From the NCBI GenBank assembly GCA_964476155.1, contig CAYYYS010000012.1, forward strand, positions 6,475 through 70,474: a DNA stretch of 64,000 nt, written 5' to 3'. The notes under the pieces were generated by a model, which had not been told where the DNA came from, did not search any database, and saw nothing but the letters and a program-made list of their open reading frames with translations. Shown piece after piece: positions 5,860 through 35,969 of this stretch. This DNA comes from an uncultured Fibrobacteraceae bacterium. Lineage in GTDB: Bacteria; Krumholzibacteriota; Krumholzibacteriia; LZORAL124-64-63. A program made the translations under genes and the position numbers. Numbering within the stretch: position 1 is the stretch's first letter; every line of letters starts with the position of its first letter.

Positions 5860-5929
5860 CACCACAGGTATATAGGTTCCCGAGAATCCAGGGCTCAGAT
5901 CGACACCTTCAACGCCGATTGAAACGCAA

Positions 5930-6160: not shown

Positions 6161-6244
6161 ATGAGCCGACTCTGATAACCTGGACACGTTACTCGACAGT
6201 CTTATTTGACGCGTATATTACACCGTGTGAATCTCGGCCGCGAT

Positions 6245-6655: not shown

Positions 6656-6665
6656 CGATGTCTCC

Positions 6666-7553
6666 TTATTTGTGCACGCGATCACGGATGCGACCCCGCA
6701 CGCGGGGCAGGTCCTCGTAATGATCCATCCGCCGCATCAGCGCGTTGATCTCGGCGCCCAGCAGGAAGATGAACCCCGACAGCCACAGCCAGACCATCAT
6801 GATGATGACCGCGGCGATCGATCCGTAGGTCACGTTGTAGGCGCTGAAGTTGCGCAAGAAGAGGCGGAACAGGGACGAGACGACGAACCAGCCGACCGTG
6901 GCGAAGACCGTTCCCGGCAGGATCCACACGTAGCGCTGTTTCGCTTCGGAGGCGAAGTGGTAGAGGATCGACACGGCGCCCAGGTTCAGCAGCAGGACCA
7001 GGGGCAGGCGCAGGGTCGTCCAGAAATTGTGGCTGTCGCCGGCAAGGCCGAGGAACTGGAAAAACTTGTGGGACAGACCCGGGCCGAGCAGCACCAGCAG
7101 GGTCGACAGGATAACGAAGCAGCTCAGCACCAGGGTCAACAGGATGGAGATCAGTTTCTGATAGGCGATGTTGCGCTTGGGATGAATATTGTAGACGCGG
7201 TTGATCGTTGTGATCAGCACGCCCACCCCCATCGACCCCGACCACAGCGCGGCCAGCAGACCGAACCCGAGAATGCTGCCCTCACGCTCGCTCAACACGG
7301 TGCGAACGGTACCCGAGACCAGGTCGAAGGCGGGCGGCGGCAGGGCTTCCTGCAGGCTGTTCAAGACCTGGTCGGGCTCGAGAATGGGCAGAAAGCTGAT
7401 CAGGCTCAGGATGAACAGCAGGAACGGGAAGATGGCGAGCATCACGAAGTACGCGATCTGCGCGGCCATGCCCATGCAGTCGTCGTAGCCGATCTCGCGT
7501 TGGAGGCGGCGCAGGAACAGGCCCGCCCTGGTTAGTCTTCTCTGGTAGTCCAT
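6666..7553 (-). CDS. yihY: YihY/BrkB (virulence factor BrkB) family inner-membrane protein
   Basis: 295 aa with multiple TM helices and the YihY signature region ...AAQIAYFVMLAIFPFLLFILSL...GSIAAVIIMMVWLWLSGFIFLLGAEINA. Same strand as the OsmC gene, 11 nt upstream. Confidence 0.85.
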   Translation of the reverse strand: MDYQRRLTRAGLFLRRLQREIGYDDCMGMAAQIAYFVMLAIFPFLLFILSLISFLPILEPDQVLNSLQEALPPPAFDLVSGTVRTVLSEREGSILGFGLLAALWSGSMGVGVLITTINRVYNIHPKRNIAYQKLISILLTLVLSCFVILSTLLVLLGPGLSHKFFQFLGLAGDSHNFWTTLRLPLVLLLNLGAVSILYHFASEAKQRYVWILPGTVFATVGWFVVSSLFRLFLRNFSAYNVTYGSIAAVIIMMVWLWLSGFIFLLGAEINALMRRMDHYEDLPRVRGRIRDRVHK

Positions 7554-7789
7554 GGTGGAATAGAATGAGGGGTTGTTGGGGAAAAATCAATGGTGGGCCG
7601 AGGTGAGGTGTGGGGGGCGCTCGCCGAGACGGTCGCTACGCCTCGGCAAGCGCCCCTCACACCACACCTCTCCGCATCGATAATTCCCAACAATCCCGTA
7701 TTCTATTCCGTATGGGTGGAGCTTGCCCAAGATCCACTTGCGTGGCAGAATGGCGCGACTGTTCCCTACGACCCTACCTGGAGGCTTTC

Positions 7790-10327
7790 ATGAGGATCGC
7801 TGCTGTCGTCCTTTTGGTTATTTTGTTGTTCAGCGTCGCTTCGCTCGCTGAGGAGGTGGAGGAGGAGGAGGAAAAGCCGACACTGTCCATCGATACTTGG
7901 CTGTACAAGGCTCCCGTGAAGCTTGACTTGCCGGCCTTCCACGACGAGAAGCCGGGCGAGTTCACGGTAGACGATTTACTCGAAGCGCCGACGCCCGGCG
8001 CGGCCTCCCTGCGGCCCGCGGCCAAGACGAAGGGCTGGTCCAGGGACGACGGCACCATCGCGCTCGACTACCAGGGCGTGGTGGAAACCTGGCTGGCCAC
8101 CTACGTGACGGCCGATCGCTTTCTCGCAGTGCAACTGCAGCTACCGTTGGCCTGCAAAGCCACAGCCTGGTTGGATGGCGAAGCCGTATCCCTGTCGGGC
8201 GACGAACCCGCGGGCGAGCTCTCGCTCCAGAGCGGCACGAGCCTATTGCTGGTGCGCGTGATCCTGGGCGACGACGTGGCGGCCAAGGCGAAGCTGCAAG
8301 CCGACCTGAAGGGCGAGTTGGTCTTCGAGGACGAGGCCTTGCTCGAAGCCGTCACCTTCGACACCGACCCCACCCGCCCGGTCGACATCAACGACATCCT
8401 CGACGCCCCCAGGATCTCTTCGATCGCCCTGTCGCCCGATGGCGCCCATGTGGCCGTTTCCCTCGGCGCCTACGGACCCGGCGGCGAGCGCGAGACCTGG
8501 CTGGAGATTCGCGATACCAAGGACGGCGACCTGATTCGCTCCTGGCGCGGTGTCGACGGTCCCGGTCGCGTGCAGTGGCTGCCCACGACGCGAGCCGTTT
8601 CCTATACTTCCAACGACGACGACAAGACCACCGTGTGGGTCTACGACCTGGAGAAGGAAACCGTCACACCCGTCTTGCGCGGTGTCGAGGACTTCTCCCG
8701 CTACGCCTGGAATCCCGACGGCGAGTCGCTCGTCTACGCCTTCAGCGTCGAGGCCGAAGACGACGACCGTCAGGTCAAACGCCTCGAGGCCATCGAAGAC
8801 CGCTGGCCCTGGTGGCGCGGCCGCAGCTACCTGGTGGAGGTCGCCTATCCGGGCGGCGAGGCGCGGCGCCTGACCGCCGGCGACGTGAGCGCGTCGGGCT
8901 GGGCCTTCAGTCCCACCGGCAGCCACCTGCTCTTCTCGCGCACCTGGCCCGATCCGCAGAACCGGCCCTACTCGCGCACCGAATGGTACGAGATGACCCT
9001 CGACAACCTGCGCGTGGAAACCGTGCTGGCCGAACGCTGGATCAGCGATGTGAGCTACGGCCGGGATCGCGACACTTTCGTGCTGATCGGCTCGCCGTCC
9101 GCGTTCGACGGACTCGGACGCGACCTGCCCGAGGGCGTCATCCCCAACGATTACGGCGGACAGCTTTTCCTTTACGACCGCAAGACATCCACCCCCACAC
9201 CGCTCAGCCGCGACTTCGACCCCACCGTGCAGGGCGCGGTGTGGCACGACAGCGGCCGTATCGTCACGCGGGTTCTGGACAAGCAGTACCAACGCATCGC
9301 CATCTGTTCGACCCGGGGCGATTGGGAAATCTACGACACGGGTGTCGACGTGGTGGCCAACTGGGAAGTCTCGCGCAGGGCCAAGACCGTGGTCACCGTC
9401 GGCACCAGCGCCACCGGTCCGCAGCAGCTCACGGCCTTCGCGCTGAAAGGTCGCAAGCCGCGCGTGCTGCTCGACCCCGGCGCCGAGCGCTACGAGCCCG
9501 TAGCGTTCGGCAAGGTGGAGCCGTTCGTCGCCACCCTGTCCGACGGCATGGAACTCGACGGCCGCGTCTACTATCCGCTCGACTATGATCCCGCGCGCAA
9601 GTACCCGGTGATCGTCTACTACTACGGCGGCACCTACCCCATCACGCGTGACTTCGGCGGCCGTTATCCCAAGAACATCTGGGCGGGCCACGACTACTTC
9701 GTCTACACGCCCAACCCGAGCGGCGCCCTGGGCTACGGACAGGAGTTCGCGGCACGACACGTGAACGACTGGGGCAAGCTCACCGCGGGTGAAGTGATCG
9801 CGGGCACCGAGGCCTTCCTGAAGGCCTACCCCGCGGCCGACGCCGACGCTGTCGGTTGCATCGGCGCCAGCTACGGCGGTTTCCTCACCATGTACCTGGT
9901 CACCCAGACCGACATGTTCTCCGCGGCGGTCGCCCACGCGGGCATCTCCAACATCAGCAGCTATTGGGCCGAGGGATACTGGGGCTACGGCTACGGCGCG
10001 CGGGCGCTGGCCAACTCGTTCCCCTGGAACGCGCGCGATCTGTACGTGGAGCAAAGTCCGCTCTTCCACGCCGACAAGATCGACACGCCGCTGCTCCTGC
10101 TGCACGGTTTCGACGACACCAACGTGCCCAAGGGCGAGAGCGACGGTCTGTACATCGCCCTGACAATGCTCGGCAAAGAGGTCGAGTACGTGCAGGTCGA
10201 GGGACAAGACCATCACATCCTCGAGCACGACCGGAGGGTGGAATGGAACGATACGATCCTGGCCTGGTTCGCGCGGGAATTAAAAGCGCGACCCGGCTGG
10301 TGGGATGACATGTATCCATCTGAATAA
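7790..10327 (+). CDS. Secreted S9 family serine peptidase (prolyl oligopeptidase/acylaminoacyl-peptidase-like) with N-terminal beta-propeller
   Basis: RBS GGAGG 6 nt before ATG at 7790. Signal peptide MRIAAVVLLVILLFSVASLA. Catalytic Ser in GASYGG, Asp in HGFDDTNV, and a C-terminal His. The upstream 60 aa of the track ORF (GTG start) is unsupported. Confidence 0.9.
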   Translation: MRIAAVVLLVILLFSVASLAEEVEEEEEKPTLSIDTWLYKAPVKLDLPAFHDEKPGEFTVDDLLEAPTPGAASLRPAAKTKGWSRDDGTIALDYQGVVETWLATYVTADRFLAVQLQLPLACKATAWLDGEAVSLSGDEPAGELSLQSGTSLLLVRVILGDDVAAKAKLQADLKGELVFEDEALLEAVTFDTDPTRPVDINDILDAPRISSIALSPDGAHVAVSLGAYGPGGERETWLEIRDTKDGDLIRSWRGVDGPGRVQWLPTTRAVSYTSNDDDKTTVWVYDLEKETVTPVLRGVEDFSRYAWNPDGESLVYAFSVEAEDDDRQVKRLEAIEDRWPWWRGRSYLVEVAYPGGEARRLTAGDVSASGWAFSPTGSHLLFSRTWPDPQNRPYSRTEWYEMTLDNLRVETVLAERWISDVSYGRDRDTFVLIGSPSAFDGLGRDLPEGVIPNDYGGQLFLYDRKTSTPTPLSRDFDPTVQGAVWHDSGRIVTRVLDKQYQRIAICSTRGDWEIYDTGVDVVANWEVSRRAKTVVTVGTSATGPQQLTAFALKGRKPRVLLDPGAERYEPVAFGKVEPFVATLSDGMELDGRVYYPLDYDPARKYPVIVYYYGGTYPITRDFGGRYPKNIWAGHDYFVYTPNPSGALGYGQEFAARHVNDWGKLTAGEVIAGTEAFLKAYPAADADAVGCIGASYGGFLTMYLVTQTDMFSAAVAHAGISNISSYWAEGYWGYGYGARALANSFPWNARDLYVEQSPLFHADKIDTPLLLLHGFDDTNVPKGESDGLYIALTMLGKEVEYVQVEGQDHHILEHDRRVEWNDTILAWFARELKARPGWWDDMYPSE

Positions 10328-10464: not shown

Positions 10465-11181
10465 ATGAAGCTGAACCGGTTATTGACCATTCTGCTCATG
10501 ATGATCCTCGTCACCACCGCCCATGGCGGTATACATAGGGGATCATCCGCTTCCATGCGCCTGGACGCCGAGCCGCCCCAGATCGGGATCGTCACCGCGC
10601 CCGAGGGCGAAACCTTCATCGCCGGCGACACGCTGCACTTCGCCTGGTGGGCGAGCGACAGCTACCCCGCGCTCCACGATTCGAACCGGGTAGCCGCCGT
10701 GCTGGTGCGCGAAGCGCTTCAGGATTCCACTACCTACACCGTCACCCTCGACCACACGTGGGACTGGATCGCCCCGGAGGTGAGTTCCGCCAATTGCGTT
10801 TTTGAAGTGACCGTGCGCGACGAGTTCGGCAACACCGCCACCACACGCAGCGACGTCTTCCGCCTCCTGCGCTCCGACACCGCGGCTCCCGATACACCCG
10901 CGACGATACGTTTGGCCGCACCCGCACCCAACCCATTCAATCCGCAGACGACTATCACCTTCGCGCTGCCCGAATCGGGACCGGTCGACCTGTCGGTCTA
11001 CGATCTGCACGGTCGGCTGGTGCGCCGTCTGCATCAGGGCGCGCTGCCCGCCGGCTCCCACACCCGCACCTGGAACGGCCGCGACGACGACGGACGCCGC
11101 GTCGCCGGTGGTCCGTACATGGTTCGCCTATTGGCCGGCGGCGGCTTCAACGAGGCCCGAAAAGTGGTGTTGTTACCATGA
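10465..11181 (+). CDS. Secreted hypothetical protein with C-terminal T9SS/FlgD-Ig-like sorting domain
   Basis: Signal peptide MKLNRLLTILLMMILVTTAHG. CTD ...APAPNPFNPQTTITFALPESGPVDLSVYDLHGRLVRRL...GPYMVRLLAGGGFNEARKVVLLP. Confidence 0.75.
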   Translation: MKLNRLLTILLMMILVTTAHGGIHRGSSASMRLDAEPPQIGIVTAPEGETFIAGDTLHFAWWASDSYPALHDSNRVAAVLVREALQDSTTYTVTLDHTWDWIAPEVSSANCVFEVTVRDEFGNTATTRSDVFRLLRSDTAAPDTPATIRLAAPAPNPFNPQTTITFALPESGPVDLSVYDLHGRLVRRLHQGALPAGSHTRTWNGRDDDGRRVAGGPYMVRLLAGGGFNEARKVVLLP

Positions 11182-12677
11182 CGATCCGACTGCTCACCAT
11201 AGCGCTGTTGATGATGGGCGTCGCCGCGTACGCCGCCGATCCGGTAGTGAGCAACATCTCATCCGCACAGCGGACCGACGGCAGCATGCTCGTGGACATC
11301 TACTACGACCTGGCCGACACCGATACCTGTCGTGTCAGCATCAACATATCCGATGACGATGGTCAGACCTGGCTCTATCCCGGTATCACGCTGACCGGCG
11401 ACGCTGGCGACGGCGTCGCACCGGGCGTCGGCAAACACGCCGTCTGGGATTTCGGCAGGGATCACGCGGGGACCTGGGGCGACGGCTTCCAGGTACAGGT
11501 GATCGCCAGTAACACACGCCTCGACTGGCGCGCCCACTCGCCGAACACCTACGCCGCCCACCACTGGGGACCATCCGGTTGGGAATCCTCGGAGCTGCCC
11601 GAACAGCTCGCGCGCGCGGACGTGGTAACCATCACCGCACGCGTCTACTGGGACAACGGCCCCATGGAAGCACTCGGGATCGTCGATGCCATCAAGGCCA
11701 TCAATCCCGACTGCACGGTGCTGGGCTATGTCCCGGTCCATGGCATCCCGCATTTTTACGGGACCGAACCCGAAGGATCCTTCGGCAGGCAGCTCTACGA
11801 CGCTACCCTGTCCTACTGGTCATACACGACCACCGGCGACACGCTTTCGAGCTGGCCGGCCGTGGTGGAGGTGAACATTCTCGACCCGGACTGCCGCGCG
11901 GCCATGGTCTCGACCTACGTCGACTATTACGCGCAGAGTGTGACCAAATTCGACGGCATCTTCTGGGACTACTTCCCCGACGCTGTCTGGATCCCGGATT
12001 TTGTGGGCTGCGAGGGTGAAGCCGACATGGACGAGGACGGCATTCCCCAACAGGAGGACCCCGACGAGATGGCCGCCTACGACGCGGCCCAGGAAGACTT
12101 CATCGCACTCATGCGCGGCGCCATGGGCGACACCTTTCCGCTGGTCTTCAACGGTGTGCGCGCCCAGCGAGACTCCGTCTTCGCGGCTTTGAGCGACGGC
12201 ATCAACTACGAGATCTTCCCGACCCTGCGCTTCCCTGAACCCCGCACCGACGCGGCCATGGATGTCGATCTGGAGTACAGCCTGTGGCACTCCACCACCT
12301 GGCCACGCACGCAGGCCGGAGGACCGTTCATCCTGCTCGAGGACATCCAGCGCTACAATTATGTGGACCACGAAGGACAGATCACCCGACTCGAGTCCGG
12401 CAACATCTTCCGTGTGATCGGCCTGCTCATAGACAACATCTACCCGGTATGGGAGCCCGCGGGCAGTCACGCATTCGGCTGGCCCGAGTTACCTTTGAGC
12501 CTGGGCGACCCCCTGGGTCCCACCGTCATCAACGGGGACGTCTACACGCGCCAGTACACCTACGGGGATGTGTGGATGGAGATGAAGGGCGGAGATTGGC
12601 CGGATCCATTCCGATACCGGATCACCATCGACGGCGAGATCGTCGAGGAACTCGACAGACCCTACCACCATCCATAG
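11178..12677 (+). CDS. Secreted hypothetical protein, possibly a TIM-barrel glycoside-hydrolase-like fold (GH114-like; speculative)
   Basis: ATGA overlap with the previous gene. Signal peptide MTIRLLTIALLMMGVAAYA. The N-terminal domain PVVSNISSAQRTDGSMLVDIYYDL is followed by about 400 aa with no recognisable catalytic motif. Confidence 0.7.
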   Translation: MTIRLLTIALLMMGVAAYAADPVVSNISSAQRTDGSMLVDIYYDLADTDTCRVSINISDDDGQTWLYPGITLTGDAGDGVAPGVGKHAVWDFGRDHAGTWGDGFQVQVIASNTRLDWRAHSPNTYAAHHWGPSGWESSELPEQLARADVVTITARVYWDNGPMEALGIVDAIKAINPDCTVLGYVPVHGIPHFYGTEPEGSFGRQLYDATLSYWSYTTTGDTLSSWPAVVEVNILDPDCRAAMVSTYVDYYAQSVTKFDGIFWDYFPDAVWIPDFVGCEGEADMDEDGIPQQEDPDEMAAYDAAQEDFIALMRGAMGDTFPLVFNGVRAQRDSVFAALSDGINYEIFPTLRFPEPRTDAAMDVDLEYSLWHSTTWPRTQAGGPFILLEDIQRYNYVDHEGQITRLESGNIFRVIGLLIDNIYPVWEPAGSHAFGWPELPLSLGDPLGPTVINGDVYTRQYTYGDVWMEMKGGDWPDPFRYRITIDGEIVEELDRPYHHP

Positions 12678-19090: not shown

Positions 19091-19351
19091 CGTTGGGCAC
19101 ATGAAGAAAAGAACCACAAGGTTGAATCTGGTAGCTGTAAACTGGTGTATATTTTGAGGCCGCGTTTGGAGATGTCGGTGGTCATATGTCTTCCCGCCAC
19201 CTGTCTCCCTCCTTGGATTTCAGGCTGGATCCTTGGCTAAGTGTGAATTGTCGATCCCGGCGTATCCAAGACATAACATGTTGGTATATACCACATTGCC
19301 TCGTTTACCACCAAGCTTCAAGGCCTCAACGACCTAGTTGTCTTGGATAAA

Positions 19352-21018
19352 TCATATCCCGTCGGGAAGATCCCACTCCGGAACTGATCGTGATCCCCTG
19401 TTCTTGAGTAGACCGTCACGGCGAAGTGCCTGTAACAGGTTCTTCACCTTGTACTTCTTCTGCTCCATCGTGAGATGATCGGGCAGTTTCGACAACAAAG
19501 CATCATCGACATCGCGTCGGCCGACTGGCCCATGCTCCCTCACCAACTCCATGATCACGTCCAAGTAGTACTGCCGATCAAAACCTCGTTCACGAATATG
19601 CCGGCCCGCACCACCAGCCGCCTTGGCCACTTCCGCCGCTACAAAGAGGTTTGGGTACCGCCCCTCCACCAACCCCGCTTTCTTTAGCTTTCGATGCTCG
19701 TCCTTGGAAACCCGCACCTTCTTCTGCACCCTGTCCAAGAGCATGACATCAGCCAGATCTAGATCTGTTTGGGCCATCAGGAGCCGGCAGTACTTTTCGT
19801 CGAGGATCTCTCCCCGAATAGTCACAGACACTCTGTCTGCCACCGAGAGGTCATAGTCGGGTAGCGGAAAAACCGCTCCCTCTGGTGGACATACATCTTC
19901 CTGATGCCACCACCCTGAGTGTCGATCATGTTGAGGTTCACCATGGCCTCGGCCAGGAATGGATTCCGATAGGTTTCCTGGGGCGCATCCTGGCGAATAA
20001 CTGACTCCACATCCCCCGGCAGGAAGTCGCCAGCGTTTCTGAACAATACGCGATCGGGCGTTTCCGCGATGTTGATCCGCCCCCTCAGGCCATAATCCTG
20101 ATGCGCGATACAGTTATGCAACGCCTCGCGCAAAACCCATGGCTCGTACTGGGTGAACTCCCTTGGAAACAAAGTGCCGCTGGGTAGCGCCCGCAACGTC
20201 AGGTTCCGAATCTTCCCGGTAACACGGTCGACCTGTAATAGGAACGGCGGGAAGAAGTGCTCGTAGTCGAGATCCAGGTTCTTGCCATCCCTTAGAGTCC
20301 AAGTAATCTTCGCCACGGCCGGAGACAACAGCGTCGAAGATTCGTTCTTGCCGAGCAGAAGCATGGCTGTGTTCGTCACCCGACCGTTAATCGTGAGCTT
20401 GGATTTGTTCAGGAAGACTTCGTCGTCCCAACCGTCGATGTCCTCGCTCTGAGTCGGGTGCTTGATCCTGAACTGCTCACGAGCCTCGGCGATTGCGCTT
20501 GAGTCGAGATGTTCGAGATCAGCTTGCTCGCAGATGTCAGCTGACCAGTCATGGCCACTCGTCAGGATGGCTCTGAGGACTTCGGGGTGGTTGCGCAGGT
20601 TCGTTTTGCAGGAGCCTATGCGGGCGAAGGCCTCACTCTTGAAGTAGACGGGGCGACCTTGCGCTGCTCGGACGGTGAATACGACAACTCGGCCGTCAGG
20701 GTGATCCACGATTTCGACGTTGAAGCCTGGATTCGGATCGAGGCTCGTATTCAACCAGATCAGGAGGTCTTGATTGCCCACGGCCTTGACATTGTAGGGA
20801 TCGAAAACCGAGCCCACAACTTCGTGTGTTCCGTCGTGGATTCCGAAAACGAGGTAACCTTGGGGTTTGCACTTCCACGCGGCTGTGTTAGAGAGCGCAG
20901 ACAGATATTCGCCCAGCTCTTGGGGCTGATATCGGTTCGCCTTGAACTCGAACCATTCGCGCTCGGCGGGCTCAGCACGGAGGCGATCGATGAGGTCGAT
21001 GAGTTGCTGATGGGTCAT
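19352..21018 (-). pseudogene. AlbA_2 (Schlafen-like) + HATPase_c_4 'divergent AAA/RecG-C-terminal' putative transcriptional regulator, split by a 1-nt frameshift
   Basis: ORF 19822..21018 (398 aa; ...HNCIAHQDY...GGGIRKM...) and ORF 19352..19843 (163 aa; winged-helix C-terminus) overlap by 22 nt. The -1 frame gives a seamless ...QRERFFPLPDYDLSVADRVSVTIRGEIL... junction at a T5/A5 run (19868..19872). Sum is about 560 aa, the family's normal length. Confidence 0.7.
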
Positions 21019-21067
21019 GGTCGCCTCCTTTTCCGACTTTGTTTCAGTGTCGCAGATATTCTGATCA

Positions 21068-23116
21068 TCAACGAACCAAAACCGCCTTCATGGTATCGGA
21101 CACTCCCCGATTTCCCCTCACCCGCACGAAATACACACCTGACGGCACATCGCGCCCACGCGCACCTCGTCCATCCCACTTTACCGTGTGAATTCCCGGC
21201 TCGACCAATCCAAGCAAGACGGTCTTGATGAGCCGGCCGGCGACATCGTGGATCTCGAGGATCATCTTATCGGGAACCTGGCTTGTGAAGGCGATTTCGA
21301 TCGACGGGTTAAAGGGGTTGGGAGCCAGGGAATTGATCTCGTGTAGACGAGGGGATGAGATCGCGTGGGGCTCCGGGTCGTTGACTGCGGTCAAAGGGTC
21401 GCGGGTTAGGCCGAGGTTGAGATCAAAACCGGCTTCGACGGATATGAAATGCCAGTTCGCGGGCGGGGACGTATTAACCGCCATGTACATATCTCCCCCC
21501 CAGGCCAATCCTGTGCCGTCGCTCTTGACGGCCAGACTGTGACTCAGCCCCGCTGAGATCGCCACGAAATCGGTATTGGGCTCAGGCACGTCACATTGTC
21601 CAAAATCGTTCCACCCCCAGGCCTCTATCGAGCCGTCCGATCGCAGCGCCAGACTGTGCCCCCCTGCTGCAATTGCCATGTAGCCGGAATTGGGTAAGGG
21701 CACTTCGGCTTGACTATTTTCATGACCCCAAGCCGTGATCGATCCATCGGATTTTAGAGCCATGGCAGTCCCACAGCTTATCGAAATAGCAACAAAATCG
21801 GCATTCGGATCGGGAAGCTCCGACAACGAATGGTTTCCCGGCCCCCATGTCACGATCGTCCCGTCGGATTTCAATCCCACGCTCCAGAAACACGAAGCCT
21901 CAACTGCCACAAAACCCGCATTGGGTTCGGGAATCGTGCCCAAATCTGCGCCTTCTTCCCCCCATGTCACGACCGACCCGTCGGATTTCAGCGCGATGGT
22001 ATGCTCCTCACCCTCGGCGATGGACACGAAGTCGGCGTTCGGCTCTGGGATTTCACACCGGTTGAAATCGCACTCCTCCCCCCAGGACAGGATCGTGCCA
22101 TCAGACTTGAGAACGAAGTAGCGATAGAATCCCGCAGCGATCTCGACGATGTCAGTACTGAGCGGGGGTGCGAGATGCTGACAATTCCATGATTCCCCTC
22201 CCCACCCCATCACGGCGCCGTCGGATTTGATCCCGGCACTGTTCTGGTAACCGGCTGCGATCGTTACAAAATCCGCGTTCGGCTCGGGGACATCACACTG
22301 GCCGAAGTCGTTGCTCCCCCAGACCACGATCGTGCCATCGGACTTGAGTCCCATGCTGTGAAAGGTATACGCGGCGATCTTCACGAAATCCGTGTTCGGT
22401 TCGGGGATGTCACACTGGCCGTATCCATTCCACCCCCAGGCTACGATCGTGCCGTCGGACTTCAGACCGAGGCTATGGGCGCCACCCGAGGCGATGGCGA
22501 TGAAATCAATATTGGGCTCGGGGACATCACCTTGGCCGTATCCATTCCATCCCCAGGTCACGATCGAGCCGTCGGGCCTCAGACCCAGGTTGGAGGAACC
22601 GCAGGCCGAGAAAGCCGTGAAGCCCAAGTTCGGTTCGGGAATGTCGAGTCGCCCATATGTGCTATCGCCCCAGGCGACGATCGAACCGTCTGTTTTGAGC
22701 GCAAGAATGTGTTTGTAGCCGGCGTCGATATCGACGAAGCCGGTGTTCGGTTCGGGAACATCACTCACGTCGATGACTATGCTGTTGGTCCAGACCTCGA
22801 TCGAACCGTTCGTTTTCAAGCCGGCGCTGAAACGTTGACCCGCCGCGACTGCCGAATAACCAACGGCCGGGATCGGCAGATCGCACTGGACATCAGAGTT
22901 CGCGCCCCAGGCCACGATCGAACCATCGGAATTCAAGGCGATGGAGTGACCCTCGCCCATATCGATGTCGACGGGATGGGTGAAGAGTGTGGCATCCGCG
23001 ATGATGAAACGCGGCCATGCCACAAGGGAGCCGTTCTCCTGACCGAGAGCAAGGTTACCGACGATAAAAAACAGGCACAGAGTCAGTGAAGATATAGACA
23101 ATACGGATCGCCTCAT
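21068..23116 (-). CDS. Secreted RCC1 (regulator of chromosome condensation)-repeat beta-propeller protein with C-terminal T9SS/FlgD-Ig-like sorting domain
   Basis: Signal peptide MRRSVLSISSLTLCLFFIVGNLALG. About 10 repeats of ...SDGSIVAWGWNGYGQCDIPEPN.... CTD ...LAPNPFNPSIEIAFTS...IHDVAGRLIKTV...GVYFVRVRGNRG...KAVLVR. Confidence 0.85.
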   Translation of the reverse strand: MRRSVLSISSLTLCLFFIVGNLALGQENGSLVAWPRFIIADATLFTHPVDIDMGEGHSIALNSDGSIVAWGANSDVQCDLPIPAVGYSAVAAGQRFSAGLKTNGSIEVWTNSIVIDVSDVPEPNTGFVDIDAGYKHILALKTDGSIVAWGDSTYGRLDIPEPNLGFTAFSACGSSNLGLRPDGSIVTWGWNGYGQGDVPEPNIDFIAIASGGAHSLGLKSDGTIVAWGWNGYGQCDIPEPNTDFVKIAAYTFHSMGLKSDGTIVVWGSNDFGQCDVPEPNADFVTIAAGYQNSAGIKSDGAVMGWGGESWNCQHLAPPLSTDIVEIAAGFYRYFVLKSDGTILSWGEECDFNRCEIPEPNADFVSIAEGEEHTIALKSDGSVVTWGEEGADLGTIPEPNAGFVAVEASCFWSVGLKSDGTIVTWGPGNHSLSELPDPNADFVAISISCGTAMALKSDGSITAWGHENSQAEVPLPNSGYMAIAAGGHSLALRSDGSIEAWGWNDFGQCDVPEPNTDFVAISAGLSHSLAVKSDGTGLAWGGDMYMAVNTSPPANWHFISVEAGFDLNLGLTRDPLTAVNDPEPHAISSPRLHEINSLAPNPFNPSIEIAFTSQVPDKMILEIHDVAGRLIKTVLLGLVEPGIHTVKWDGRGARGRDVPSGVYFVRVRGNRGVSDTMKAVLVR

Positions 23117-23198
23117 GGAACTCCCTTTCCGTGGCGGTAATATTGCATCGATTTATATGAGATTACATTATCTGCCCTTTCCGTGAAATGGCCTAATA

Positions 23199-23228
23199 CA
23201 AAAACCCCACCTCCAAAGAGGCGGGGCA
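23199..23228 (-). terminator. Rho-independent terminator downstream of the lipoprotein gene 23250..24539
   Basis: Minus-strand hairpin ccccgcctc-tttg-gaggtgggg followed by TTTTT (plus 23200-23204 aaaaa). Confidence 0.55.
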
Positions 23229-23249: not shown

Positions 23250-24539
23250 CTAATCCCGCGGCTTGTCCGGCGGAAAAATCCCGAACCCCACCTGCGTCAT
23301 CGTCCCATCGAACCCGATCAGGTTCAGCATCAGCACCCCTGGTCCATAGAGGCGCATGTACTCACCCCACAGCGGCATCAGATCGAAGACGAATTCGTCC
23401 TCGAACCATGCGTCGCAATCCTCCTCGACCTCGTGCACCAGCACCACATTGATCTGCGGCGGATCTGATTCCATGAATCCGCCGCTCGCATAGAGCGTGA
23501 ACGGCTGGTCCGGCTGGCAGCCCGAGAATCCAACGTGCATCCTCAGATGATGCTCGCCCTCGATCTCGGCGCCGATCAGCACCCAATGGCCGAAGTGCAG
23601 TTCTTCCGGCGGCAAGGGAGTGAACAGGATTTCCGTGTTCTGGGGAGGCCCGGCAGAGCACAGACCGAAGTGGGCCTCGTCGAAACCGTGGGGCAAACCG
23701 TCGGGACCCGGCGTCAACAACACGTCCAGGGGGTTGGGCGTGGTGAAACAGGGGTCCAGGGGCGGCATCCAGGCCCGGTTGCACTGAAGCCGATAGAGAC
23801 CGGCGGTCTCGACCGGCAGGGCCCAATGGCCGTCGGGATCAGTAGCGAGATGGACGACATCGCCGTCGGGTAGCGAGACCGCGATGAAGGCGGGGCCCAT
23901 GGGCGGTTCGGTCGGTTCAGGCCAACCGTTATTGTTCTCGTCCACGAAACAACGGCCGGCGATGCGCGGCCGGTCGGGCTCGGTGCCGAACTCGGCCCAG
24001 CCTTGGAAGGAGAATGACCCCAGGCCGGGATCATGGAAGATCCAGGTCTTGGCGGTCGACGTCTCCCCGTACTCCAGGATGTCGTCGTCGCCCATCAGGT
24101 CCGAGTAGTCGAAACCGAAACGCACGAAGTGGACGAAGGTGTCCTGCTTCCCTTCGGCGGGCGGAACGATGGCATAATCCGCGTTGATCAGACTCACGGT
24201 TTCCGGTACGAAGCGCTCCACCCAGACCACGGCCGGTGCGTATAGCGGATAGGGATGCTGGCTGCGGATGGCCACATCCAGGCTGACCTGCTCGTTGGTC
24301 GGGTCGGCAACCAGGTTGGAGCCGATCAACTCTATCACGGCGGCAGGGCCATCCCAGGGCGGCGGCATCTGCAAGGTTTTCAGGACAAAAGTGCCGTCGG
24401 CGGGATCCATGTCGCCCTCTGCGCCGACGCGCGCCAGGGTGCCATCGTCACCGGACGGAGCTGTGGAGTCGGAACAGCCGGATAGCGCTAAAATCGACAG
24501 CAGCCCCAGAAGGAGCAGGGCGCGAAAAGGTCGCAACAT
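23250..24539 (-). CDS. Hypothetical lipoprotein
   Basis: Lipobox MLRPFRALLLLGLLSILALSGC. 429 aa with no recognisable domain. Co-directional with, and 128 nt downstream of, the PorV-like OMP gene. Confidence 0.75.
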   Translation of the reverse strand: MLRPFRALLLLGLLSILALSGCSDSTAPSGDDGTLARVGAEGDMDPADGTFVLKTLQMPPPWDGPAAVIELIGSNLVADPTNEQVSLDVAIRSQHPYPLYAPAVVWVERFVPETVSLINADYAIVPPAEGKQDTFVHFVRFGFDYSDLMGDDDILEYGETSTAKTWIFHDPGLGSFSFQGWAEFGTEPDRPRIAGRCFVDENNNGWPEPTEPPMGPAFIAVSLPDGDVVHLATDPDGHWALPVETAGLYRLQCNRAWMPPLDPCFTTPNPLDVLLTPGPDGLPHGFDEAHFGLCSAGPPQNTEILFTPLPPEELHFGHWVLIGAEIEGEHHLRMHVGFSGCQPDQPFTLYASGGFMESDPPQINVVLVHEVEEDCDAWFEDEFVFDLMPLWGEYMRLYGPGVLMLNLIGFDGTMTQVGFGIFPPDKPRD

Positions 24540-24666
24540 CGCATGACCTCCGAAGGAGATGTGGGGTACATATGGGCGGGGTGGCGACGACCGGCCCTTA
24601 AAAAGAGCCTAGCCCACACAGAATATCACAGGCAGGGCGGGAATACCACCGAGCCGGAAGCCGGAA

Positions 24667-25749
24667 TCAGAAATCGAGCGAGACTGCAGCACTGTAACGA
24701 TCGAGGCGTTTCTTGACGATCGGGTCACTGCTCTTCAGATCTGGGTCGTACGGTACGCTGGCCCAGTCGGCGCGGACCCCGAAGCGGCCAATCTGTGGGA
24801 AAAGCCGCAAACCGGCTCCATATGTGATGCCATTCTTGACATGGCCTTCGCCCCAATCAACCTGGCCGACCCGACCCGAAACCAGACCGAACATCGTCAA
24901 TTCGGCGCCGTAGCGATTCACGGTCGAGTTTGACCATTCGTTGTCGAGGCGACCCTTTTCCCGGTCGGCGGTGATCAGCCAGCGCAGGCGATGGCCCTGG
25001 CCGTGGTGCCACCCGTGTCGACCTTCCAGCGCGAACCCGGCGCGACCGCGTTGCATAAGGGTGAGGGGGGCGGATTTGGTTTCGATCACCGTCCAGTCGA
25101 TTTCGACCTCGGCCCGATCGGTATTGGTCAGGACACCACCCAGTCGCCAGCCGACCCAACCCCGATGAACGTCGTCGGAGTCGCCCAGGAAGAAACGAGT
25201 GCCGAACATGAAGCCCGCATCCTTGTCAGAGGCTTTGGCAAAGGTCTCGTTTTCCCAGCTGGATTCGAGGGTCTTGAAATTGACGCCCAAGCTGGCGAAG
25301 AGCGTGGTCTCGTCGCCGAAGATCAGCCGCCCCAGATCGATGGCCAGCCCCACGGCGCGTGCGTGAATTCTGAAATCTTCCAATGTGCCCTGATCGAAAG
25401 TGTCGGTCGTAGTATCCCAGGCCAATTCGTTCTGATAAGCCCCAAGACGCAGATAGCCGATTTCAACCGCGGCGCCAAGTGCCGAGAATTTCAGATCATC
25501 GATGAACTGGTCGGCTTGATGGTACCCCACGGCCACCGTATGGCCCTCGAGCTGGGTTGCCGGATTCCAGAAGAGACCCGCCGGGCCTTCCGCCACGGCG
25601 GTGAACGCCATGCCCATCCCCTCGCTGCGGGCATCGGGCGCATAGGCCTGTCCGGTGAATGAGTCCGAGTAGATACGCTCGTACTCGTCCGCACAAGCCG
25701 CGGACACAAGCACCATGGCCATCAAGATCAGAACAACACTCGATTTCAT
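24667..25749 (-). CDS. Outer-membrane beta-barrel protein, PorV/PorQ (LptO)-like T9SS-associated family
   Basis: RBS GGAGAGG before ATG at 25749. Signal peptide MKSSVVLILMAMVLVSAACA. N-terminal ...GMGMAFTAVAEGPAGLFWNPA... resembles the PorV/FadL-like signature. C-terminal ...AAVSLDF ends in Phe, as for OMPs. Confidence 0.6.
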   Translation of the reverse strand: MKSSVVLILMAMVLVSAACADEYERIYSDSFTGQAYAPDARSEGMGMAFTAVAEGPAGLFWNPATQLEGHTVAVGYHQADQFIDDLKFSALGAAVEIGYLRLGAYQNELAWDTTTDTFDQGTLEDFRIHARAVGLAIDLGRLIFGDETTLFASLGVNFKTLESSWENETFAKASDKDAGFMFGTRFFLGDSDDVHRGWVGWRLGGVLTNTDRAEVEIDWTVIETKSAPLTLMQRGRAGFALEGRHGWHHGQGHRLRWLITADREKGRLDNEWSNSTVNRYGAELTMFGLVSGRVGQVDWGEGHVKNGITYGAGLRLFPQIGRFGVRADWASVPYDPDLKSSDPIVKKRLDRYSAAVSLDF

Positions 25750-25926
25750 CGACCTCTCCTGACGATTCATCCAACCATGCGTCGGAAATTCTAATCACTG
25801 GACGGCCGGGGATCAAGTCGGTCCGACCGAGTGCCGAGTAATATGGATGTCTCAGGGGAGTGGGACCTGTATACTCCGGCCCGGTCGACTAATTCCGAAC
25901 GTCACAAGACAAGGGACAGAACCCAC

Positions 25927-26747: not shown

Positions 26748-26843
26748 ATGGACATGAGCCTGAAGATCATCCTGCGCGCCGCGGTATCGATATTCCTGCC
26801 GCTGGCCCTGGCCTTGGCCTCGGCCGCCCTGGCCAACGCCTGA
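26748..26843 (+). CDS. Possible 31-aa hydrophobic micropeptide MDMSLKIILRAAVSIFLPLALALASAALANA
   Basis: Short ORF between the methyltransferase and the bidirectional terminator. Weak RBS. Speculative. Confidence 0.2.
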   Translation: MDMSLKIILRAAVSIFLPLALALASAALANA

Positions 26844-29840: not shown

Positions 29841-32273
29841 ATGCGTACTATGCTTATTGCCGCCGTCGTCCTGCTGGTCGCCGTGTCCGCCGCGGCCATC
29901 CCCATCTCCGACCTGCACGTCAACTACGCCAACGGCACGCCGACCCTGCTGGGTCAGACGGTCACGGTGAGCGGCGTGGTCACGGTACCCACGTACCTGC
30001 TCAACGGCTATACGCTCGAGGTGTTCGTGCAGGACGACACGGGCGGCATCAACGTCTACGTGACCGGCGGCGCGTCGAGCTGGAACCTGGCCCTGGGCGA
30101 CAGCGTGACCGTCACCTCACGTGTGGCCCAGTACAACGGGCTGACCGAGCTGGGCACGGCCACCAGCTACACGACCATCACGAATCACGGCCCGGCTTCG
30201 GCCATACCCGAGCCACAGGCCATGAGCTGCACCAGCGTGAACGACGCCTTCCTGGCCAACAACCGCGACCCGGACGAGAGCCGGCTCGTGCGCCTGGACA
30301 ACCTGAACATCACCAGCGGCGCGTGGCCGGTGACCGCCGGCGGCAACACGGTACTCACGGTCAACGACGGCGGCGGGTCCTGTCTGCTGTACATCGACCA
30401 GGACACGGACCTGAACGGCAGTCCCGATCCCGGCGCCAACTTCTCGGTGATCGGCGTGATCAAGCAGTACGACTACTCGAGTCCCTACACGACGGGGTAT
30501 GAGGTCATGCCGCGCTACCTGAGCGACGTGTTCCCCACGAGCTCGGGTCCCGTGGTGACCGGCGACGTTACCGTGATGAACATCACGTCCACCGGGGCCG
30601 GCGTCCTCTTCTTCACCCAGGGCGACGGCAGCACCGAGGTGGAATACGGCCTGACGCCGAGCTACGGTCAGACCGCCGGCTTTCCCGACGTTCGTGTCAC
30701 CGCCCACGTGGTCACGCTGACCGACCTGGTGCCCAACTCGGTCTACTACTTCCGCGCCAAATCCACCAACGACTACGGCACCTCTTACGGACCCGACCAG
30801 GTCTTCGTGACCCCGAGCGAAATCCCCGGCGAGATCCACGTCTACATGAAAGGCTCGGCCGATCACGACTATTCCCTCGACGGCCTCACATTCGTGAACG
30901 ACAACGAATCCCTGTCGGGACGCCTGATCGACCTGATCGGCGACGCCGAAGCCTCGGTGGACGCCTGTCTCTACAGCTTCAGCCTGGACAGCGTGCGCGA
31001 CGCCCTGATCGCCGCCCACAACCGCGGTTGCCAGGTGCGCTTGATCATCGACCAGGACAACTCGCACGCCGACGCCGATGTCTGCCAGGCGGCGGGCATC
31101 CCCTACATCGACAGCGGCTTCGGGGGCAACCACGCCAGCGGCGCCATGCACAACAAGTTCGTGGTGATCGACGGACGCGACGTGGACAAGTACAACGACT
31201 GGACCTGGACCGGCAGCGCCAACATGAGCATCTCGGGCGACAACGACCTGAACAACGCCCTGGCCATTCGCGACTTCGGCCTGGCCCAGGCCTACACCCT
31301 GGAGTTCAACGAGATGTGGGGCAGCGACACCCAAACCGCCAACGGAACCCTGGCCCGCATGGGCGACGCCAAGCTGGACAACACGCCGCACGTGTTCACC
31401 ATCAACGGTCTCGACGTCGAACAGTACATGAGTCCCAGCGACGAGGTGACCGACCGCGTGATCGAGGCCATCGGCACCGCCGAGCAGAACATCTACTTCG
31501 CCATGCTGGCGTTCACCCACAACGACATTTCCGACGCCATGCGCGACCAACGCGACGCGGTGCCGACCCTGGGCCTGGCCGGTGTCTTCGAACAGGATCA
31601 GAGCGATTGCACCAGCGGCGGCGAGTACTGGCGCATGCATGGCGACGCCTGCGCGCCCGACCCCTGGTCGCCGGCGGCCGATGTGTGGCTGGACACCGCT
31701 CTGCCGGGCAGCGTCCTGCTGCACCACAAGTACCTGCTGATCGACGCGCCCGGCGATCCCCAGACCAGTCTGCCGAAAAGCGGCGGAGCCTTCGACGCGA
31801 TGGTCTTCACCGGCAGCCACAACTGGAGCTACAGCGCCGAATCGATCAACGACGAGAACACCCTGGTGATCCACGACTATGTAATCGCCAACCTGTTCCT
31901 GCAGGAGTTCGCGGCGCGTTACGCCGAGTCCGGCGGGTCCGAGCACCTGGGCTGGGCCACCGGTGTGGAGGACGGCCCCGACGCGGCGCCCCGACTGCTC
32001 GCCGGCCTGCGCGCCTGGCCGAATCCCTTCAATCCCCAGGTGAGTTTCTCGTTCATGACCGGCACGACGGCCCGGGTCGACGTGAGCGTGCACGACGCGC
32101 GGGGGCGGCTTGTGCGCTCGCTATACGGCGGGAAGGACCTGGCGGCTGGACTGCATGTGCTGGGGTGGGATGGACGCACCACTGACGGGCGGGCGGCCGC
32201 GAGCGGCGCCTATTTCCTGCGCGTGAGTGGCGGCGGGGAAACGATCACCGAACGGGTGACGTTGGTTCGCTGA
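29841..32273 (+). CDS. Secreted phospholipase-D superfamily enzyme (two HKD motifs) with FN3-like domain and C-terminal T9SS/FlgD-Ig-like sorting domain
   Basis: Signal peptide MRTMLIAAVVLLVAVSAAA at an internal ATG. HKD motifs AMHNKFVVIDG and LLHHKYLLIDAP. FN3-like ...VYYFRAKSTNDYG.... CTD AWPNPFNPQVSFSF...VSVHDARGRLVRSL...GAYFLRVSGGGETITERVTLVR. The in-frame upstream 146 codons (29403..29840) look like a decayed leader ORF. Confidence 0.85.
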   Translation: MRTMLIAAVVLLVAVSAAAIPISDLHVNYANGTPTLLGQTVTVSGVVTVPTYLLNGYTLEVFVQDDTGGINVYVTGGASSWNLALGDSVTVTSRVAQYNGLTELGTATSYTTITNHGPASAIPEPQAMSCTSVNDAFLANNRDPDESRLVRLDNLNITSGAWPVTAGGNTVLTVNDGGGSCLLYIDQDTDLNGSPDPGANFSVIGVIKQYDYSSPYTTGYEVMPRYLSDVFPTSSGPVVTGDVTVMNITSTGAGVLFFTQGDGSTEVEYGLTPSYGQTAGFPDVRVTAHVVTLTDLVPNSVYYFRAKSTNDYGTSYGPDQVFVTPSEIPGEIHVYMKGSADHDYSLDGLTFVNDNESLSGRLIDLIGDAEASVDACLYSFSLDSVRDALIAAHNRGCQVRLIIDQDNSHADADVCQAAGIPYIDSGFGGNHASGAMHNKFVVIDGRDVDKYNDWTWTGSANMSISGDNDLNNALAIRDFGLAQAYTLEFNEMWGSDTQTANGTLARMGDAKLDNTPHVFTINGLDVEQYMSPSDEVTDRVIEAIGTAEQNIYFAMLAFTHNDISDAMRDQRDAVPTLGLAGVFEQDQSDCTSGGEYWRMHGDACAPDPWSPAADVWLDTALPGSVLLHHKYLLIDAPGDPQTSLPKSGGAFDAMVFTGSHNWSYSAESINDENTLVIHDYVIANLFLQEFAARYAESGGSEHLGWATGVEDGPDAAPRLLAGLRAWPNPFNPQVSFSFMTGTTARVDVSVHDARGRLVRSLYGGKDLAAGLHVLGWDGRTTDGRAAASGAYFLRVSGGGETITERVTLVR

Positions 32274-33812: not shown

Positions 33813-35969
33813 ATGACACACGATCGCCCCACACACAGCGCGCTTGCCGCCGGCCTGTTGTTCGTATGGATGCTGATACCTTGCGTCGTGTTTGGCGTGT
33901 CCAACGGCGAGGTGCCGATCGACTCGTGGATGCTGGAGGGCAAGGGCATCCCCTGTCGCGGTCACGCCAAGGGCCTGGGACCGAACAAGGCCCCCGAAAA
34001 CCATCCGTCCCAGGACCTGATCGATGTCCTGCACTACGCGAATTATTTCATGCTGAATTTCGCCACCCAGGACATCCAGGGCGCACAGCTGATCACCTTC
34101 TCTCCTCTGCAGGGGGCCGTGACCGAGCTGGTCCTGGATTTCGTTGACGAGATGTCTTTTACGTCGGCGGCCCTGAACTCCTCCAATTACGCGCCTCTCC
34201 CTTTCGTTCACGCCAACGACCGCGTGACGATCTCACTGCCCTTTGAGGGCCAGGCCACCACCGATACGATCACGGTCATACTGACCTTCGAGGGCGCGCC
34301 GCAGCCTGACGGAATCTACGGTTTCCGGTTCGTCGAGCGCGAAGACGGTAAACTGGTGGCGGCCAACGTCAGCGAGCCCTGGAGCGCGCGTTCATGGTGG
34401 CCCTGCAAGGACGACCCGCGCGACAAGGCCACGTTCGGCACATCCCTCTATTCGCCCGCCGGCGTGACCGGTGTCTCGAACGGAGTAGAGCTTTCCTCGG
34501 GGCCCGTAAACCCGTACCTGGACGATGACGAGAAAACACGTCTCGAAGATCACCTGGCGGTTCTGCTCGGCGACAAGACCGAGTATGTGGCCGCGTACTG
34601 GCAGGAAACACATCCCATCTCCACGTATCATTTTTCGGTGGCGGCCTCCGAGTACACGCGCCTGGACGACATCTACATCGACGCCCAGGGCGACACGTTG
34701 CAGATCACCAATTACATCTATCCCGATCTGGTCCCCCAGGCCGAGATCGACTTCGCGCCGCTGTCGGACATGCTCGCCTGGTGCGAGGACACGTTCGGGG
34801 CCTACCCCTTCCCTGGCGAGAAATACGGTCATGCCCTCTTCGAGTGGGACGGCGCCATGGAGCATCCCACCGTCGCCACTTATTCGTCCCACTTTGTGAC
34901 CGGCGACAACAATTTCGACTCGATTGTCATGCACGAACTGGCCCATCAGTGGTTCGGCAATCTCGTCACCTGCGCCGACTGGTCCCATACCTGGCTGAAC
35001 GAGGGGTTCGCCACCTACGCCGAAGGTCTCTGGCGCGAGCACTCCGTGGGCGGGAGTTCGCTGAAATGGTTCATGTACCAGCGCAGCATTTTCACCTGGT
35101 GGGGGGGGGCCCTGGTCCGCGACATCCGCAATGACGACCCCTGGTACTTCTTCGCCAACATGGTCTACTACAAGGGTGCCTGGCTGCTGCACATGCTGCG
35201 TCGCGAGATCGGCGACACGGATTTTTTCGAGATTCTCAGACTCTATCCCCACGCGCGCGGCATGTCCTACGGTACCGCGACGACCGACGAATTCGTGCGC
35301 TTCTGCGAGGTATACCTGCGACGCAGCATGTCGACGTTCTTCAACCAGTGGCTCTACCGCGAAACCTATCCCGAACTGAACGTGCAATGGATGAATACCG
35401 GAACCGGGGGCGCTTCGAGCATATGGCTCGACATCAACCAGATCCAGCCCACCGACCCCTATGCCGGTGACGAACCTTTCCTTTTCAAGATCGACGTCCG
35501 CCTGGAAACCGCCGGCGGCAACGTCACCCACGTCGTCGAAGTGGACCGCCGCCACATGTTCGTGACGCTGGACGCACCGGCCAACGTGGACAACGTGGTC
35601 CTCGACCCCGACGGCTGGATGCTCTTCACTGCGGACGTGACCACGGCGGTGGATCCCCTCGCTTCCACCACCCGCGTATTGCGCCTGCGCAAGCCGGAGC
35701 CCAACCCCTTCACCGGACGCGGCATCATCGCCTGGACGACGCCCTTGTCCGGCGGCGACGAGCTGGCCGTCTACGACACGCGCGGCCGGCGCCTGCGCGA
35801 CTGGAAACTCTCCCCCGCCGAACCCGGACAGCGCAGCATCGCCTGGGACGGTCGCGACCGTAACGGTCGTCGCGTGTCGGCGGGCACCTATGTCTACACC
35901 GTCATCTCCCGCCCCACCGACGGCGGCGCGCCCCTGCGCGAAACCGGCAAGATCACACTCGCGCGCTGA
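33813..35969 (+). CDS. Secreted M1 family aminopeptidase (aminopeptidase N-like) with C-terminal T9SS/FlgD-Ig-like sorting domain
   Basis: Signal anchor MTHDRPTHSALAAGLLFVWMLIPCVVFG. GAMEH exopeptidase motif, HEXXH zincin motif VMHELAHQWFGN and the downstream LNEGFATY Glu. CTD ...PEPNPFTGRGIIAWTT...ELAVYDTRGRRLRDW...GTYVYTVISRP...GKITLAR. Confidence 0.9.
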   Translation: MTHDRPTHSALAAGLLFVWMLIPCVVFGVSNGEVPIDSWMLEGKGIPCRGHAKGLGPNKAPENHPSQDLIDVLHYANYFMLNFATQDIQGAQLITFSPLQGAVTELVLDFVDEMSFTSAALNSSNYAPLPFVHANDRVTISLPFEGQATTDTITVILTFEGAPQPDGIYGFRFVEREDGKLVAANVSEPWSARSWWPCKDDPRDKATFGTSLYSPAGVTGVSNGVELSSGPVNPYLDDDEKTRLEDHLAVLLGDKTEYVAAYWQETHPISTYHFSVAASEYTRLDDIYIDAQGDTLQITNYIYPDLVPQAEIDFAPLSDMLAWCEDTFGAYPFPGEKYGHALFEWDGAMEHPTVATYSSHFVTGDNNFDSIVMHELAHQWFGNLVTCADWSHTWLNEGFATYAEGLWREHSVGGSSLKWFMYQRSIFTWWGGALVRDIRNDDPWYFFANMVYYKGAWLLHMLRREIGDTDFFEILRLYPHARGMSYGTATTDEFVRFCEVYLRRSMSTFFNQWLYRETYPELNVQWMNTGTGGASSIWLDINQIQPTDPYAGDEPFLFKIDVRLETAGGNVTHVVEVDRRHMFVTLDAPANVDNVVLDPDGWMLFTADVTTAVDPLASTTRVLRLRKPEPNPFTGRGIIAWTTPLSGGDELAVYDTRGRRLRDWKLSPAEPGQRSIAWDGRDRNGRRVSAGTYVYTVISRPTDGGAPLRETGKITLAR

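Follow-up and report, generated by a model that had tools for sequence, protein, structure and literature searches.

A divergent PorV-superfamily barrel encoded among proteins with type IX-like C-terminal sorting domains in a probable member of the Krumholzibacteriota

The 64,000-nucleotide stretch of DNA considered here (the window; ~63% GC) encodes seven proteins that end in the same C-terminal domain (CTD) and, amid their genes, an outer-membrane barrel (positions 24667..25749) that is a genuine, divergent member of the PorV/PorQ superfamily, as judged by sequence profiles and a predicted structure. The CTD is related to the sorting domains of type IX secretion systems (T9SSs). The organism is an FCB-superphylum bacterium, most likely of the Krumholzibacteriota, order LZORAL124-64-63, and would export many of its proteins by a type IX-style route. 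We give a probability of roughly 55% to the reading that the barrel does the job of PorV, that is, acts as a shuttle for CTD-bearing cargo. The original prediction, which had proposed a heavily used CTD-dependent export route with a PorV-like barrel nearby, is largely right in its interpretation and goes beyond the evidence on two points, the name PorV and the role of a neighbouring lipoprotein.

Under the shuttle reading, the seven cargo proteins, each carrying a signal peptide for Sec and, at the C-terminus, an Ig-like domain of ~85 amino acids (aa), would be exported by Sec and then recognised through the CTD. A T9SS, the core machine of which we infer to be present, would move them across the outer membrane. 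The barrel would bind cargo by its CTD as it leaves the outer-membrane translocon and carry it to release or surface attachment. Krumholzibacteriota form part of the FCB superphylum, for which CTD-tagged proteins together with a divergent PorV relative are expected and are not a new system. For several FCB phyla other than Bacteroidota, a T9SS has been either reported or proposed (PMC11285876). In Bacteroidota, the PorV shuttle collects cargo with type A CTDs from the SprA translocon, and one PorV serves all type A CTDs (PMC12618676). In the literature searched, no paper was found that links Krumholzibacteriota with T9SS, and the same holds for Eisenbacteria, Latescibacteria and the FlgD Ig-like domain.

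The window belongs to a metagenomic scaffold of 73.7 kb. Related loci are given L numbers below. The relative L008, from the metagenome-assembled genome (MAG) CSMAG_1813, has the same gene order as the window, and its barrel, SOD and Gate protein are 71%, 90% and 96% identical to those of the window, respectively. GTDB places it in Krumholzibacteriota; Krumholzibacteria; LZORAL124-64-63; genus JAHIYU01.

The shared domain was located with a profile built from six complete CTDs, which had been collected by a strict motif search, and run on all six reading frames. Exactly seven CTD-bearing open reading frames (ORFs) were found in the window (E 1.7e-21 to 5.1e-38); an eighth CTD was looked for with this profile in the six frames and none was found. 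The earlier count of eight genes ending in the same domain is thus reduced to seven, because the item it lists as "truncated protease C-terminus" belongs to the S8 protease already counted, while the shared domain itself is confirmed. The left window edge runs through the CTD of this protease, and on the parent contig it comprises 1018 aa with a complete CTD, its C-terminal end reading ...PNPFNPQTTIEF...RKMMLVR. In all seven proteins the CTD ends at the stop codon, and all seven have N-terminal sequences that resemble signal peptides when judged by eye. The description of the set as secreted enzymes is loose, since only the S8, M1 and PLD-type proteins are demonstrably enzymes by family.

Two curated families meet in this domain. 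Pfam FlgD_ig (PF13860) has a gathering threshold of 27 bits, and six of the seven proteins exceed it (32.4-46.6 bits), with the truncated S8 copy at 26.4. TIGR04183, the NCBI model of the T9SS type A sorting domain (cut-off 23 bits), is passed by four full-length proteins and by five of the seven CTDs scored in isolation (Table 1), and the alignments span nearly the full model. Two other T9SS models stayed below their cut-offs, with Pfam Por_Secre_tail (PF18962) reaching ~18.8 bits against a cut-off of 27, and the type B sorting domain TIGR04131 remaining unmatched (best CTD score 12.9 bits, cut-off 35). Each of the seven CTDs further aligns with the last ~100 residues of the PorU model.

Comparison with solved structures extends this picture. 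The CTD profile matches the CTDs of Porphyromonas gingivalis PorZ (5m11; E 4.3e-5, residues 677-745 of 758) and PorU (6za2; E 1.5e-4, residues 1061-1150 of 1156), in both cases over almost the whole length of the profile, and a core of ~58 residues matches flagellar FlgD (E 8.7e-12). Beforehand, a generic Ig-like fold with no match to a T9SS model had been set as the outcome that would speak against the T9SS/FlgD-Ig-like assignment. What was found is a domain that matches TIGR04183, FlgD_ig and the PorZ and PorU CTDs, so the assignment stands. By sequence, the CTD is a variant of the type A CTD of T9SSs with an FlgD_ig flavour. Its fold is likely a seven-stranded Ig-like beta-sandwich, given its sequence homology with the Ig domain of FlgD and with the CTDs of PorZ and PorU, for which structures are solved.

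The CTDs share with type A sorting domains (TIGR04183/PF18962) the C-terminal position, a PNPF-type start, a central D..G..V motif and a basic-hydrophobic end. They differ in carrying the FlgD_ig signature W.G.D..G..v.sG.Y and in scoring higher on PF13860 than on PF18962. The likeness to the Ig domain of the flagellar hook-cap protein FlgD (PF13860; PDB 7eh9, 7bhq) lies in the core alignment given above. In contrast to the window CTDs, FlgD lacks both the PNPF start and the K..L.R end, and the window domain has no flagellar context and serves as the end tag of unrelated proteins, among them proteases, repeat proteins and a nuclease-like protein. At least 550 database relatives were found, and those with names are called either "T9SS type A sorting domain-containing protein" or "FlgD immunoglobulin-like domain containing protein". 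They sit in MAGs of Krumholzibacteria, Eisenbacteria and Latescibacteria, in which this variant is common; the nearest ones bear the T9SS name and come from Krumholzibacteria and Eisenbacteria.

The barrel has a signal peptide (~residues 1-20), an N-terminal segment with the motif PDARSEGMGMAFTAVAEGPAGLFWNPA, 14 beta-strands and a C-terminal Phe. All homologues and the public gene calls support its predicted start at 25749 (MKSS...), which is preceded by AGGAGAGG; both the coordinates first proposed for the gene and the N-terminal motif quoted for it, GMGMAFTAVAEGPAGLFWNPA, are correct. A word-index search returned 13 homologues, and an exhaustive profile search returned 514 proteins at E<=1e-3. 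The immediate clade of the barrel is small and lies inside a large, diffuse family.

A family alignment and profile were built from 91 diverse relatives. Among these, 84 match PorV_fam (best E 5.2e-52), 23 the PorV equivalog, 19 PorV2 and 15 PorQ, and only one matches a model of OmpP1/FadL type (pilus_FilD, E 0.001). Against the PDB, the 91-sequence profile finds PorV of Flavobacterium johnsoniae (6h3i_F) at E 1.9e-19; the FadL-type channel TbuX follows at E 0.0036, in a match confined to ~30 residues around the N-terminal motif. An AlphaFold (AF2) model built on the same alignment has a pLDDT of 90.8 and 14 long strands; it replaced an earlier model from 12 close homologues, which was unusable (pLDDT 49). 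The best Foldseek matches of the newer model in the PDB are the PorV chains 8gl6_F and 6h3i_F from T9SS translocon complexes (TM 0.62-0.66).

PorV is accordingly the best match of the barrel by both profile and fold. Like PorV (LptO) of F. johnsoniae and P. gingivalis, it is a predicted 14-stranded barrel of the FadL superfamily with an N-terminal DAR..G.G...WNPA motif, and it is encoded in a genome rich in type A-like CTD proteins. However, identity in the structural alignment is only ~12-13%, the barrel has 360 aa whereas PorV has 402, it is not beside a porU-like gene in the window, and its host belongs to the Krumholzibacteriota and not the Bacteroidota. PorQ and PorV2 (NF033711, NF052325) belong to the same superfamily and are matched by the share of relatives given above, and the barrel has a weak match to PorV2 (17 bits), but it has no significant match to PorQ and no PorZ-like neighbour. 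Taken by profile and fold, "PorV-like" is therefore sound as a statement of superfamily, while "PorV" proper goes beyond the evidence; the barrel could be a PorV orthologue, PorQ-like or another paralogue.

Several observations weigh against a role as the PorV shuttle. On PorV_fam (NF033709, the PorV/PorQ family model of NCBIfam, cut-off 90 bits) the barrel scores 38.7-38.8 bits, and only residues 36-190, the N-terminal half, are aligned. It has no match to the PorV equivalog (NF033710, cut-off 250 bits) or to the PorQ equivalog (NF033711), at E<=0.01 for a 367-aa form and at E<=0.001 for the one of 360 aa. The relatives nearest to it, at 28-65 bits, stay under the PorV_fam cut-off too, and its clade is small, with seven representative sequences at E<=1e-30 in a search of 1.84 billion proteins. 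At two related loci, L012 and L014, CTD proteins and the lipoprotein discussed below are present with no such barrel within 10 kb, so that a general shuttle, if it is this barrel, must be encoded elsewhere in those genomes. The core of the CTD is closer to flagellar FlgD than to any T9SS CTD of solved structure. In addition, Pfam and NCBIfam searches of all sizeable ORFs of the window and of additional sequence from the parent contig found no T9SS core gene (GldK/L/M/N, SprA, PorU, PorZ or others) in the window or in ~6.5 kb beyond its left edge, and none was found in the related loci fetched. Since the genome spans several megabases, this lack within one stretch is weak evidence.

The gene downstream of the barrel encodes a putative lipoprotein with the lipobox LSGC, in which the Cys is invariant. 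It has no Pfam or NCBIfam match. Its predicted layout consists of a central beta-sandwich similar to SdrD-B/Cna-B, flanked by N- and C-terminal domains that have no known relatives. The family profile matches the SdrD B domain at E 9.6e-15 (profile positions 174-258), and SdrD_B is detected in 22 of 40 family members. The search returned 188 homologues, with identities of at least 39% among the best 120. The family, of more than 188 members, is annotated as hypothetical throughout and has a near-invariant TTPNP motif, and the C-terminal domain has an invariant pair of Cys residues (GFSGCQP...E.CDA). Judging from these sequences, it appears to be an uncharacterised family that is widespread in the lineage.

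Barrel and lipoprotein genes lie on the same strand, 127 nt apart, and each has a Shine-Dalgarno sequence, which for the lipoprotein is GGAGG. The spacer contains no terminator-like hairpin, and the strong terminator-like hairpin directly after the lipoprotein gene (Table 1) is likely the end of the unit. Upstream of the barrel gene lies a weak match to a sigma-70-like promoter, of a quality for which 1.0 match is expected by chance and one was found. From this arrangement, the two genes are probably co-transcribed in the window, as the original prediction had stated. The spacer contains a conserved, C-rich non-coding element, CGCCACCCCGCCCATATGTACCCCACATCTCC, just upstream of the GGAGG. It is ~90% identical across relatives with barrels that are 49-76% identical in protein, and conservation over the final ~50 nt of the spacer far exceeds that of the genes on either side. 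The element occurs only once in the window and matches no Rfam family. Another conserved motif, TGTGATAT, lies ~50 nt upstream of the element and could be an internal promoter.

The pair is conserved among close relatives. Barrel and lipoprotein genes are adjacent on the same strand in the window and also in every one of the seven distinct relatives whose barrels share 49-76% identity with it, with a spacer of 122-133 nt where measured. Profile scans for barrel loci yielded seven loci from the metagenome scan and four from the genome scan. More distant loci differ. L014 retains the SOD...DinB-Gate-DUF2797 order of the window and has the lipoprotein without the barrel; L012, on a 3.6-Mb contig with different neighbours, likewise has the lipoprotein alone. 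In L013, which has the same SOD...DinB-Gate-DUF2797 order, a 29%-identical barrel lies two genes away from the lipoprotein, and one of the two is on the opposite strand. The barrels of L007, L019 and L020 (32-39% identical) have no lipoprotein neighbour, and in L007 the gene downstream of the barrel encodes an unrelated 956-aa CTD protein.

The pairing is lineage-specific, as the lipoprotein belongs to a much wider family and is found in more distant relatives where the barrel is missing. The comparison points to the lipoprotein being an older and wider family of the Krumholzibacteriota that is not an obligate partner of the barrel. The lipoprotein was also considered as a conserved partner of PorV and rejected, on the strength of the L007 downstream gene and of the lone lipoprotein in L012 and L014. 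Co-transcription, as originally proposed for this gene, is plausible here, and the lipoprotein is not a dedicated partner of PorV.

Four other explanations were weighed against the shuttle reading. The barrel may be a specialised paralogue of the PorV family, either a PorQ-like anchor in an attachment complex or a cognate shuttle for nearby cargo, with a more canonical PorV elsewhere in the genome; this main alternative is possible but not probable. It would fit the sub-threshold scores on every curated PorV and PorQ model, the faint PorV2 match, the small and fast-evolving clade, and the missing barrel at the lipoprotein sites of L012 and L014. PorV-family genes also stand directly beside CTD-cargo genes in L007, L011 and L020. 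This proximity, seen in the window with the RCC1 gene, counts for the shuttle reading as well. These abutting pairs (L007 10001..14057; L011 9337..14342; L020 46..2027) lie on three unrelated contigs, of which that of L011 is an Ignavibacteriaceae MAG, and they resemble the pairing of shuttle and cargo genes that is known for type B CTDs. Cognate pairs of this kind are documented for PorP/SprF in Flavobacterium (PMC12618676) and set a precedent, but PorP/SprF belong to another barrel family, and the window CTDs are type A-like. A dedicated cargo is also harder to name in the window, where the immediate neighbour is the CTD-less lipoprotein and not a cargo gene, and where the RCC1 cargo gene, lying second downstream of the barrel, has no counterpart in L004, a close relative. 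Moreover, the use of one PorV by all type A CTDs of Bacteroidota argues for a general shuttle. Alternatively, the barrel may work with the lipoprotein, in its anchoring or surface exposure, its nearness to CTD genes being incidental. The adjacency in the window and in all seven close relatives, the lack of a terminator in the spacer, the terminator-like hairpin after the pair and the strongly conserved ~32-nt spacer element speak for this, and with a CTD in seven of ~55 window genes, proximity by chance is likely. Yet the lipoprotein family is far wider than that of the barrel (188 against 13 homologues), either gene occurs without the other in the distant loci described above, and the lipoprotein has a strong ribosome-binding site of its own and possibly its own promoter; this explanation is rather unlikely.

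It is distinctly unlikely that the shared domain is an FlgD-type Ig module for surface display or adhesion that is sorted by a system other than T9SS. The better solved-structure match to FlgD, the low Por_Secre_tail score, the lack of core T9SS genes in the sequence searched and the silence of the literature searched would agree with such a module. In contrast, a strictly C-terminal position in seven of seven proteins, a PNPF start and a K/R-x-x-L-x-R/K end, full-length alignment to TIGR04183 above its cut-off in five of seven and similarity to the PorU and PorZ CTDs speak against it, a PorV-family barrel is encoded nearby, and T9SSs are reported or proposed in several other FCB phyla (PMC11285876). 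That the barrel is an ordinary channel of FadL/TodX type, passing hydrophobic compounds and taking no part in protein secretion, is very improbable. PorV is itself a member of the FadL superfamily, and FadL, TodX and CymD are among the fold matches, with a related N-terminal motif in the channels and the TbuX profile match noted above. However, PorV is far better by profile and by fold (TM 0.40-0.48 for FadL/TodX), PorV_fam is the model that nearly all of the 91 relatives match, and the barrel has no Pfam match at E<=0.01, including the FadL-type family Toluene_X. The shuttle reading therefore keeps our preference. A further, speculative idea, to which we give low odds, is that the barrel has joined an operon with an ancient lipoprotein found across the phylum, and that the pair forms a lineage-specific attachment or sorting module replacing part of the PorU/PorV/PorQ/PorZ attachment complex of Bacteroidota, with the spacer element coordinating expression.

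These findings leave the understanding of the T9SS mechanism unchanged. They extend type IX-style cargo tagging, which is well supported here, and a PorV-family barrel to the Krumholzibacteriota, an uncultured, little-studied sediment phylum. About one gene in eight in the window is CTD-tagged, which suggests that the organism lives by hydrolases that it secretes or displays on its surface. The CTD, with its FlgD_ig flavour, and the PorV clade below threshold also mark where curated models lose sensitivity outside Bacteroidota, which bears on the annotation of secretomes in metagenomes.

Table 1. Features of the window, with positions in window coordinates. TIGR04183 scores are given as full protein / CTD alone where both are available.
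Feature	Position	Strand	CTD position	FlgD_ig (bits)	TIGR04183 (bits)	Further description
S8 subtilase with CTD	1..3002	-	3..197	26.4 (truncated copy)	39.0 (complete CTD)	Peptidase_S8 E 2e-46; CTD profile E 1.7e-21
238-aa signal-peptide protein with CTD	10465..11181	+	10927..11181	46.6	23.8 / 27.0	
RCC1-repeat beta-propeller protein with CTD	21068..23116	-	21068..21322	40	23.2 / 28.9	RCC1-like domain E 2.8e-97
Terminator-like hairpin	23204..23227	-				10-bp stem with 7 GC pairs, T-run; right after lipoprotein gene
Putative lipoprotein	23250..24539	-				429 aa
Conserved non-coding element	24555..24586	-				32 nt, in spacer
PorV/PorQ-superfamily outer-membrane barrel	24667..25749	-				360 aa; PorV_fam E 8e-10; profile, AF2 model, Foldseek
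Sigma-70-like promoter match	25788..25816	-				Upstream of barrel gene; weak consensus match
DUF5689 and PLD-like (NucT-type) protein with CTD	29841..32273	+	32019..32273		28.1 / 33.7	PLDc_2 E 8.5e-32; DUF5689
M1 aminopeptidase with CTD	33813..35969	+	35700..35969	32.4	19.5 (below cut-off)	Peptidase_M1 E 7e-29
Lamin-tail-domain (LTD)/GldG-like (ABC_transp_aux) protein with CTD	41369..43396	+	43145..43396	35.7	29.5 / 34.6	LTD; ABC_transp_aux
772-aa signal-peptide protein with CTD	57277..59595	-	57277..57534	36.3	20.8 (below cut-off)	No N-terminal family recognised

Some of the CTD proteins merit further description. The PLD/DUF5689 protein, the true start of which is at 29841, is a probable extracellular nuclease by its domains. 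The stop codon of the 238-aa protein overlaps (ATGA) the start of a gene whose GHL15-like product of 499 aa has a signal peptide but lacks a CTD. This pair, which spans 10465..12677 on the plus strand, is kept in L004, L013, L014 and L022, and the small CTD protein might, hypothetically, export its partner by piggy-back.

The RCC1 gene lies in a block of lower GC content (~0.58, ~19350..23120), together with a Schlafen/AlbA_2-HATPase_c_4 gene and an AlkZ-like fragment. The block is absent from L004, the barrel of which is 76% identical to that of the window and in which the lipoprotein gene is followed almost directly by the Gate-domain gene, so the block looks like a variable island. A second region of lower GC content, at 52-56 kb, holds a radical-SAM gene and a gene for a protein without a family match. 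Near it lies an HNH endonuclease/DUF222 gene (60392..61522, plus strand), and genes of this kind are typical of mobile elements. Scans of the window for tRNAs and Rfam families gave no match.

Between the SOD and methyltransferase genes, a small hydrophobic ORF of 29-31 aa, MDMSLKIILRAAVSIFLPLALALASAALANA, occupies 26748..26843 on the plus strand. Its amino acids are conserved, with synonymous changes in the DNA, in L001, L004, L005, L007 and L013, where SOD identity falls to as little as 69%, and it is probably a real gene for a small membrane peptide. In L005, the AlkZ-like gene and SOD are separated by four tandem genes for proteins of 196-197 aa (4717..7891), which the window lacks; one has a faint CARDB match and the rest have no family. 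The barrel orthologues P0002 (L004, 76% identical) and P0007 (L005, 59%) share the locus-tag prefix H8E07 and the same gene order, and the H8E07 MAG probably merges two related populations.

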